Below the pieces are notes generated by a model. The model made no database searches. It was given only the letters and a program-made list of their open reading frames with translations, and had not been told where the DNA came from. Shown piece after piece: positions 8,140-8,364 of a DNA stretch of 32,000 nucleotides. A program made the translations under genes and the position numbers. The stretch lies in the NCBI GenBank assembly GCA_019057815.1, contig JAHLWR010000013.1:39542-71541 (forward strand), given 5' to 3'. Within the stretch, counting starts at the first letter, position 1; each line of letters opens with the position of its first letter. Origin of the DNA: Candidatus Heimdallarchaeota archaeon (GTDB lineage: Archaea > Asgardarchaeota > Heimdallarchaeia > Heimdallarchaeales > Heimdallarchaeaceae).

Positions 8140-8144
8140 AAAAA
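8140..8144 (-). terminator. First oligo-T run downstream of the 5S rRNA gene
   Basis: The minus strand reads ACGAACUUUUUCUG. Further T5 and T6 runs lie at 8126-8130 and 8110-8115. Archaeal Pol termination at T-runs is established; use at this site is inferred. Confidence 0.35.
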
Positions 8145-8168
8145 GTTCGTCTTTCTCTCAACAGTGTT

Positions 8169-8291
8169 TTCAGGTTCGGAATGAGTCTGAGTGTTACTCC
8201 TTCACTATGGCCGCGACGTATCGCAGCTAATAACCCTTCCCAAGACCTCGCGGATCTTAGTACCAAGCCACACGTGGAAGGACTTAACTTT
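8169..8291 (-). rRNA. 5S rRNA gene in circularly permuted order: 3' half (8291->8221), UACG cap (8220->8217), 5' half (8216->8171)
   Basis: The minus strand reads AAAGUUAAGUCCUUCCACGUGUGGCUUGGUACUAAGAUCCGCGAGGUCUUGGGAAGGGUUAUUAGCUGCGA-UACG-UCGCGGCCAUAGUGAAGGAGUAACACUCAGACUCAUUCCGAACCUG. Rejoined in canonical order it aligns almost position-for-position with archaeal 5S (GGCCAYAGUGA..CAACAC..GACUCAUUYCGAAC..AAGUUAAG..GGUAC..GCGAG..UGGGA). Helices I, II, III and IV/V all pair. The exact termini are uncertain. Confidence 0.85.
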
Positions 8292-8296
8292 CCTGT

Positions 8297-8319
8297 GCAT
8301 CCGGAACGCGTCCAGATAC
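8297..8319 (-). other. 9-bp hairpin in the 5' flank of the permuted 5S gene
   Basis: The minus strand reads GUAUCUGGA-CGCGU-UCCGGAUGC, one nucleotide upstream of CAGGAAAGUUAAG. GC-rich relative to its surroundings. Confidence 0.6.
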
Positions 8320-8364
8320 TTACTGACATCGTTGAGATGTGACTAACTGGGAGAAAGGTTGTTT

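Follow-up and report, generated by a model that had tools for sequence, protein, structure and literature searches.

A circularly permuted 5S ribosomal RNA gene conserved in a clade of Heimdallarchaeota, and a flanking signal that may direct its circularization

How does a ribosome obtain its 5S ribosomal RNA (rRNA) when the genome appears to hold no gene for it? Cytoplasmic ribosomes universally contain 5S rRNA, and finding its gene is normally regarded as a trivial task. In complete Heimdallarchaeum genomes no 5S gene was predictable (two closed genomes; Wu et al. 2022, PMC8813620), while other Asgard lineages are reported with ordinary 5S genes. We analyzed a stretch of 32,000 nucleotides (nt), referred to here as the window, from a Candidatus Heimdallarchaeota archaeon (assembly GCA_019057815.1, contig JAHLWR010000013.1, positions 39,542 to 71,541), the minus strand of which carries the parts of a 5S rRNA in swapped order. 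The locus therefore poses two questions: whether it is a working gene, and in what form its RNA would enter the ribosome. To the first, the answer is very probably yes: a clade of Heimdallarchaeota has conserved the locus as a working 5S rRNA gene in circularly permuted form. To the second, the explanation we favor, and consider reasonably likely on the combined analysis, is that the permuted gene makes a circular 5S rRNA through the transfer RNA (tRNA) splicing machinery. Coordinates are those of the window unless another locus is named, and features lie on the minus strand unless stated otherwise.

Reading along the minus strand, the 3' two-thirds of a 5S rRNA (8289..8221) come first, followed by UACG (8220..8217) and then by the 5' third (8216..8169). 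The 3' side of loop B, AAGUUAAG (8290..8283), stands at the head of the first segment and is followed, as read from the sequence, by the helix II 3' strand UCCUU-CC-AC, the loop E motif GGUAC, the helix IV hairpin AAGAUC-CGCGA-GGUCUU with GGGAA after it, and the helix I 3' strand GCUGCGA (8227..8221). UACG (8217..8220) forms a tetraloop that caps a fully paired helix I of 7 base pairs (bp), the 5' strand of which, UCGCGGC (8216..8210), opens the second segment. Next come loop A, CAUAG, then GUGAAGGA, the helix II 5' strand GU-G-AAGGA between loop A and helix III, and helix III with loop C, UCAG-ACUCAUUCCGAAC-CUGA, ending near 8170. Read in this permuted order, helices I to V and loops A to E each occur once with their canonical motifs, and in the alignment of loci described below CCAUAG, CAUUCCGAAC, AAGUUAAG and GGUAC are invariant. 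The predicted mature body is 121 nt long (8169..8289), as supported by the full-length match of a permuted covariance model, the paired fold and RNAalifold. The initial annotation of this DNA, made from its letters alone, had joined the natural 5S ends through a UACG tetraloop and located the new ones between helix III and loop B; both placements are upheld, the tetraloop being of the UNCG type, and its coordinates were right to within 1 nt.

Searches with Rfam models recognized no 5S rRNA in the window, whether at gathering thresholds or at E<=1 over its whole length, and at the gathering level they recognized no canonical 5S in the 10 Heimdallarchaeota genome loci introduced below. A local E-value search with RF00001 returned two partial matches in the wrong order, as had been predicted for the native sequence: one of 18.8 bits against a cut-off of 38 (8339..8218, of which only model positions ~47-120 are truly aligned), and a second of 13.6 bits lying downstream at 8192..8168 (model positions 27-51). 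The gene as encoded thus scores below the RF00001 gathering level. The initial annotation had proposed re-permuting the target sequence and searching it again; we inverted this test and permuted the seeds of the model in silico instead. Eleven ordinary bacterial 5S genes, each verified by Rfam at 74-107 bits, were cut at CCGAACnnnnA|AGTTAAG and their native ends linked by random 4-mers, giving a permuted-order covariance model (R1), and the same 11 sequences in native order gave a control model (R2). R1 matched the window from its first to its last model position (8289..8169; 57.3 bits, E 2e-13, E-values being rough owing to a shortened calibration) and scored 49-58 bits against all 15 relatives, whereas R2 yielded a partial match of 13.8 bits in the window and fragments of 12-18 bits across the loci. 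In this equivalent form the test bears out the swapped order of the 5S parts. The R1 seeds had been picked by a pattern that shares the loop motifs, and absolute scores are somewhat flattered; the clean measure is the difference between R1 and R2 only, and between these matched models nothing but arrangement accounts for the gap of ~40 bits. R1 also scores bacterial tandem 5S arrays highly, as expected (102.6 bits for locus L025). A canonical 5S at or near the locus was considered and rejected, since Rfam, at gathering and E-value settings alike, and R2 gave fragments only.

Relatives came from two scans. A degenerate pattern requiring the permuted order, run against one genome per prokaryotic species, matched 27 loci, 17 of them bacterial and 10 from Heimdallarchaeota. 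The bacterial loci are ordinary 23S-5S regions or tandem 5S arrays (RF00001 74-107 bits) that matched through adjacent copies; they were set aside as candidates and served as seed sequences and controls. All 10 Heimdallarchaeota loci have identical spacing, and one of them, L011, lies on the complete chromosome of Ca. Heimdallarchaeum aukensis PM71 (CP084166.1), one of the genomes treated in PMC8813620. A relaxed pattern run on metagenome contigs added five loci from the same clade, and in those contigs it found neither a permuted 5S outside the clade nor any intermediate form. Altogether the window has 15 other loci as relatives, all from Heimdallarchaeota and spread over at least nine species-representative genomes and five metagenome contigs, with a predicted body of 121 nt at every locus. 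That 15 independent loci from other assemblies share this order and length speaks strongly against chance and against an assembly error at the tetraloop, the latter a possibility raised at the outset. Over 8 kb the window itself shares ~94% identity with a contig of the metagenome-assembled genome (MAG) Candidatus Heimdallarchaeota archaeon 8H_bin2, which places it in the Heimdall group of Asgard archaea, in keeping with the archaeal origin assumed at first.

Some assemblies appear to hold more than one copy. Two permuted 5S genes occur together in MAG BPTO01 (L007, 728..849; L010, 2841..2962), and a second pair, L028 and L031, co-occurs in the metagenome assembly JABUBM01. Bodies of co-occurring copies differ at 3 of 121 nt (including UACG versus UAUG), and their leaders and trailers are unrelated between copies, yet each flank pair is self-complementary. 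Going by these shared bins, a genome probably carries two paralogues. A divergently oriented tRNA-Ser(GCU) gene is found 150-180 nt from the permuted 5S in most lineages (L002 7201..7283, L011 6779..6865, L023 648..730, L024 2508..2590, L030 3739..3825 and L032 1469..1551), a position that may be the ancestral locus; the window-type copy adjoins tRNA-His instead.

Is the 5S fold maintained by selection? In an alignment of 11 native loci (A3), the 5S fold, put into permuted order, has 96.1% of its cells paired, against 29-53% in slid controls. Both partners have changed in six pairs, which belong to helices II, IV and V, and none of 500 shuffles reached the observed pairing and covariation values; helices I and III are invariant and hence uninformative on covariation. 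RNAalifold, applied to re-permuted sequences, returned the 5S three-way junction. Helix II bridges the two swapped segments, and its compensatory changes (GAAGGA:UCCUUC versus GGCAGG:CCUGCC) show that both act in one molecule. The connector reads UACG, UUCG, UGCG or UAUG across loci, with U1 and G4 fixed and position 2 free, a pattern that identifies it, on sequence grounds, as a UNCG-type cap, and helix I is, at 7 bp, ~2 bp shorter than the family consensus. Taken with the RF00001, R1 and R2 results, the covariation upholds the earlier statement that no canonical linear 5S can be encoded from this locus.

The initial annotation had also stated that neither flank supplies the missing complementary halves. 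The flanks are not featureless: they contain a conserved, covarying stem and a motif resembling a bulge-helix-bulge, both of which it had missed. A putative TATA-like box, TTTTTAA (8367..8373), was noted by eye ~30-36 nt upstream of the leader stem, and other loci carry TTAAAAA or AAATATAT at a similar distance (likewise by eye). The leader strand of an outer stem, UCUCAACGAUGU (8326..8337), pairs in the minimum free energy (MFE) fold with the trailer strand ACACUGUUGAGA (8156..8167), which directly follows the trailer bulge. Eight of the 12 pairs of this stem show changes on both sides, with 85.6% of cells paired across the 11 sequences, as in the exchange of UCUCAACGAUGU:ACACUGUUGAGA in the window for GCCUAGUAAGGU:UCCUUGCUAGGU in L002. 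Inside the outer stem, a linker, CAGUAA (8320..8325), leads to a conserved leader hairpin, GUAUCUGGA-CGCGU-UCCGGAUGC (8297..8319), with nine pairs, three of them changed on both sides, and 90.9% of cells paired. This hairpin falls within 8168..8317, the sole block common to distant loci, and occupies the place of a bulge-helix-bulge flanking helix. The linker motif GUCAG (8323..8327) is kept in four of five flank types (the L002, L005, L010 and L023 types, together with the window) and is absent from the Heimdallarchaeum type; it is able to pair with the trailer CUGA, as an alternative both to helix III and to the central helix described next.

At the center of the flanking structure, CAGG in the leader (8292..8295) pairs with CCUG (8174..8171), which overlaps the helix III 3' strand CUGA (8173..8170). 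This 4-bp helix, CAGG or CGGG with CCUG, is present at all 16 loci and fully paired in all 11 aligned sequences, five of which have G-U in place of A-U. Each strand is followed by a 3-nt AAA bulge, in the leader at 8289..8291 (predicted cut 8290|8289) and in the trailer at 8168..8170 (predicted cut 8169|8168, with an alternative register 1 nt later). CRGG-AAA upstream and CCUG-AAA downstream, bulges included, are invariant at 16 of 16 loci, while the 3 nt before CRGG and the sequence after AAA vary. The bulge-helix-bulge, which is the target of the archaeal tRNA splicing endonuclease, is built around just such a unit: 4 bp of helix, with 3 nt bulged out on the 3' side of either strand. Over the whole processing structure 89.8% of cells are paired, compared with 26-44% in slid controls. 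Downstream, a T5 run (8140..8144), found by eye, is likely an archaeal transcription stop, and at other loci a T6 run directly follows the trailer stem. Three fates had initially been offered for the RNA, namely a permuted linear 5S, a circle closed at the new ends, and a circle re-opened at the tetraloop; of these, the flank signal favors circularization at the new ends.

Two other readings of this region were discarded. Pairing of the leader with the helix II 3' strand, which would give a pseudo-5S in canonical order, is not conserved in L002-type flanks. The open reading frame (ORF) at 8048..8329 (minus strand, 93 amino acids [aa]) was rejected as a protein, its similarity to distant loci being confined to 8168..8317.

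Where the RNA would be cut can be judged from a neighbor. A tRNA-His(GUG) gene on the plus strand (7953..8042), 130 nt from the 5S locus, has a 16-nt intron at the canonical 37/38 position within a bulge-helix-bulge that is, by eye, a textbook example (GAGGA-CUGU-GG|U ... GCAG-AC|A-UCCUU). Its presence shows that the organism depends on a tRNA splicing endonuclease and ligase, and it supplies the rule that cleavage follows the second base of the bulge. The bulge geometry at the 5S locus is the same, and the rule, applied there, puts the 5' end at A8289 and the 3' end at A8169. The predicted ligated junction, CCGAACCUGAA|AGUUAAG (CCUGAA|AGUUAAG), matches the Rfam consensus CCGaACuCggAAguUAAG in both length and pattern; in 5S terms it consists of CUGA of helix III, the spacer AA, the pair GU and then UAAG, which is the canonical loop B. 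That the predicted cuts would rebuild loop B to the nucleotide is the strongest argument for ligation. The tRNA-His gene converges on the 5S transcription unit and ends ~100 nt from its T-run.

We propose the following pathway. A transcript of ~190-200 nt would arise from a promoter of the locus's own, and pairing of leader with trailer, conserved and covarying as described, would present the CAGG:CCUG helix with one AAA bulge per strand. By analogy with tRNA introns, the tRNA splicing endonuclease would cut after the second nucleotide of each bulge and the ligase RtcB would join the new ends. The product would be a covalently closed circle of 121 nt in which loop B, CUGA-AA-GU-UAAG, is recreated and the ancestral ends are closed by the tetraloop. 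Excision at the bulge-helix-bulge-like signal followed by circularization by the tRNA splicing machinery is, on the sequence evidence, likely. Among the forms the RNA could take, the circle would be the one most likely built into the ribosome, although for the circle as the mature ribosomal form we put the chances at about even. The full proposition, that ribosomes of this clade contain the 121-nt circle as their sole 5S species, made from a permuted gene via the tRNA splicing machinery, we regard as evenly balanced.

Besides the flattered absolute R1 scores mentioned above, several points weigh against this pathway or its premises. Cleavage, ligation and circularity are all inferred from sequence, and the absence of a canonical 5S from whole genomes rests on a published statement (PMC8813620). 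The window and most of its relatives do not have the textbook helix-bulge-helix-bulge-helix (hBHBh') motif: the hairpin and the distal stem turn it into a three-way junction, and no member has an inner-side helix. If the motif is imposed, the fold lies 2.1 kcal/mol above the MFE in the window and 6.6 above it in L005. Moreover, CCUG is also needed for helix III, so that the processing fold and the mature fold are mutually exclusive and must compete. There is, finally, an alternative 4-bp helix between UCAG of the linker and CUGA of the trailer, stacking on the outer stem with a bulge that reads AAU or AAA, which is possible in four of five flank types and occurs in the MFE fold of L005. It would move the 3' cut by 1 nt and put the 5' cut before the hairpin, and the 3' end is accordingly uncertain by 1 nt. 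This was the sole recurring alternative in a systematic leader-trailer search for a better textbook motif; it is absent from the H. aukensis type, and the other candidates from that search were not conserved. The Heimdallarchaeum type (L011, L030 and L032) comes closer to the classical form, since GUGGU directly before CAGG pairs over 5 bp with ACCAC after the bulge, and the H. aukensis structure GUGGU-CAGG-AAA / CCUG-AAA-ACCAC lies within 0.2 kcal/mol of the MFE. Elsewhere the leader hairpin may serve only as a recognition element, or may stay in an intermediate from which it is later excised as an intron would be, and a relaxed motif would need an endonuclease that accepts such motifs.

How do other accounts of the locus fare against circularization by the tRNA splicing machinery? 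A functional permuted gene could yield a linear mature 5S, either because the ends at or near the bulges are never ligated or because the circle is nicked in loop B. The evidence for a functional gene (R1, RNAalifold and covariation) fits this equally well, a break in loop B would leave helix III tied to helix II through the continuous 5' strand so that ligation is unneeded, and stramenopile mitochondrial 5S rRNA is permuted in its final, linear product (PMC4267664). The known excision products of archaeal bulge-helix-bulge motifs (among them tRNA introns, pre-16S and pre-23S circles, and signal recognition particle [SRP] RNA) are nevertheless all ligated, and the predicted cuts restore the canonical AA spacer exactly, a precision that matters only if the ends are joined; we consider a linear permuted 5S unlikely. 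The RNA could instead be circularized and then re-opened at the tetraloop to give an ordinary linear 5S, much as permuted tRNAs mature through a circular intermediate opened at the acceptor ends (cited in PMC4267664) and as archaeal pre-16S circles are re-linearized. Against this, the 4-nt connector with its UNCG-like pattern (U1 and G4 invariant) looks like a structural cap and not a nuclease site, determinants of the RNase P or tRNase Z type are absent, and helix I is ~2 bp short, as expected if the loop fills the space of the former helix end. We know of no enzyme that opens such a loop, which also counts against re-opening, and we judge this route less probable still.

The remaining account is that the locus is a decayed tandem-duplicate pseudogene or an assembly artifact and that the real 5S lies elsewhere. 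The leader does weakly resemble a degraded 5' third in the window and in L023 (not significantly in L005 or L011), a resemblance from which it follows that the locus probably began as a tandem dimer. But the same junction recurs at 16 loci, compensatory substitutions maintain the helices while the loops are invariant, the flanks evolve freely yet keep pairing, and the ORF at 8048..8329 is unconserved beyond the RNA block 8168..8317. The initial annotation had named a separate canonical 5S, which would make this locus a decayed duplicate, as the finding that would overturn it; what we found is compensatory conservation in at least nine Heimdallarchaeota genomes, and no canonical 5S is predictable in complete genomes of the genus (PMC8813620). 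Covariation, recurrence in the clade and the lack of a predictable 5S together make a pseudogene or an artifact very unlikely.

How might a permuted gene have arisen? The leader, at 48 nt, has the length of the 5S 5' third, and in global alignments compared with shuffles the two resemble each other in the window (z 2.9, p 0.005) and in L023 (z 2.8, p 0.008); in the same test L005 gave p 0.13 and L011 was not significant. In the L005 and L023 types, GCC-UAGU-AAGG of the leader resembles GCCAUAGUGAAGG, which spans loop A and the helix II 5' strand, and UCCUUGCUAGG of the trailer resembles the helix II 3' strand UCCUUCCACG, which suggests that the outer stem may be a relic of helix II. These similarities lend weak support to descent from a head-to-tail 5S-5S dimer, the outer parts of which would have decayed into leader and trailer. 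Bacterial tandem 5S genes ~20 nt apart were encountered in L025 (234..486; Tumebacillus lacus) and L001 (6..210; a Fusobacteriaceae MAG), and the permuted-order model scores 102.6 and 84.7 bits, respectively, across the junction of their copies. Dimers of this kind could be the sort of starting material from which a permuted gene is made.

The closest analogue to the locus is the SRP RNA of Thermoproteus. In T. tenax and T. uzoniensis the SRP RNA gene is permuted and has a TATA box, a leader and a bulge-helix-bulge (Plagens et al. 2015, eLife, PMC4731332); in vitro the endonuclease cuts the precursor, and the RNA in its mature state is a circle (PMC4731332). In both cases a universal, structured noncoding RNA has no findable canonical gene, the gene is permuted and has a TATA box of its own (a putative one here) and a short leader, leader and trailer form a motif of the bulge-helix-bulge type, and joining restores, or in the present case would restore, a conserved loop; the present case concerns 5S rRNA, a ribosome component, in an Asgard archaeon as opposed to a crenarchaeon. 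The two differ in structure as well. Here a tetraloop closes off the former ends on a helix I that has been kept, whereas the Thermoproteus SRP RNA has lost its terminal helix 1, and the motif here is mostly a three-way junction with an extra conserved hairpin, in contrast to the bulge-helix-bulge of the SRP RNA. They differ, too, in that cleavage and circularity of the SRP RNA are experimental findings, while the 5S rRNA described here is known from sequence alone.

Permuted genes are known for tRNAs too, and are reported from Thermofilum pendens among other organisms. As at the 5S locus, those of Cyanidioschyzon merolae have the 3' part before the 5' part, flanks of the bulge-helix-bulge type and maturation through a circular RNA that the tRNA splicing machinery makes (cited in PMC4267664). 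The tRNA circles are, however, opened again when RNase P and tRNase Z cut at the acceptor ends to give a normal linear tRNA, whereas the UNCG-type cap offers no such site. Permuted organellar 5S rRNAs, to which the initial annotation had pointed as a precedent, do exist, but they are arranged differently, with no swapped parts (PMC4267664). The mitochondrial 5S rRNAs of stramenopiles, including brown algae (Valach et al. 2014, PMC4267664), resemble the present case in that their termini do not lie at the end of helix I and that standard models miss them. In these RNAs a hairpin at the 5' (or 3') end takes the place of helix I, and the termini are located at the loop A three-way junction; the order of the beta and gamma domains is unchanged, and there is no bulge-helix-bulge and no circularization, in an organellar setting (PMC4267664). 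The window locus does not fit this type (mtPerm-5S), having a 7-bp helix I built from both ancestral strands, a break in loop B and swapped parts.

Other precedents concern the RNA and not the gene, or were made by hand. Archaeal circular or permuted 23S rRNAs (Pyrococcus furiosus, PMC7758197; Genome Biol 2026, PMC12918454) likewise depend on bulge-helix-bulge motifs, and their joined ends persist in the ribosome, but the genes keep the canonical order, circularity or permutation being a property of the RNA alone; 5S rRNAs were stated not to be processed by the circularization or permutation route (PMC12918454). In Escherichia coli a circularly permuted 5S (cp5S) with its native ends joined by a 4-nt connector supports active ribosomes (Huang et al. 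2020, PMC7283268), although this construct is artificial: it was opened within loop C or D, was inserted into 23S rRNA as a fusion, and is neither free nor circular. Circles of ~123 nt derived from 5S rRNA were detected in Sulfolobus and Halobacterium by circular RNA sequencing (circRNA-seq; Danan et al. 2012, PMC3326292); unlike the circle proposed here, they are minor products of canonical genes with the native ends joined, and they had no validation by reverse transcription-PCR and may be degradation intermediates. Our full-text literature searches found no earlier account, from archaea, Asgard or otherwise, of a 5S gene that is permuted or circular, in line with the initial remark that no archaeal chromosomal 5S of this type was known.

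A permuted gene would explain why 5S prediction failed in the closed Heimdallarchaeum genomes, and the permuted model offers annotators a concrete means of recovering the gene, a matter that touches MAG quality criteria requiring a 5S. Rescue of permuted genes by the tRNA splicing machinery, so far confined to tRNAs and one SRP RNA, would extend to rRNA. If the proposed pathway is correct, the clade would provide the first natural case of a cytoplasmic 5S rRNA both permuted in its gene and circular in the ribosome: a natural ribosome with an endless 5S, complementing the circular 23S rRNA of archaeal ribosomes, and in the archaeal group nearest to eukaryotes. The precursor would then be a fossil of an ancestral tandem 5S dimer, and a splicing signal placed at a three-way junction would be an unusual endonuclease substrate.

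The surroundings of the locus can be summarized briefly. The window has a G+C content of ~33%, and more than two-thirds of it is taken up by two giant adjacent ORFs on the minus strand, 9831..27863 (6010 aa) and 27860..31780 (1306 aa), which overlap at stop and start; neither has a Pfam match at E<=0.001. Two tandem proteins on the plus strand, 88..3402 (1104 aa) and 3403..5769 (788 aa), have only weak winged-helix, AlkZ-like and Lhr-WH matches. The RNA locus is flanked by small GTPases of the Ras/Roc family at 6779..7294 (plus strand) and 9069..9602 (minus strand; Pfam Ras, E 1e-38 and 1e-50, respectively), which we take to be typical Asgard "eukaryotic signature" proteins. Just beyond the tRNA-His gene, an ORF on the minus strand (7312..7785, 157 aa) matches DUF2122 ("RecB-family nuclease," E 2e-24) and, weakly, SpoU methylase.

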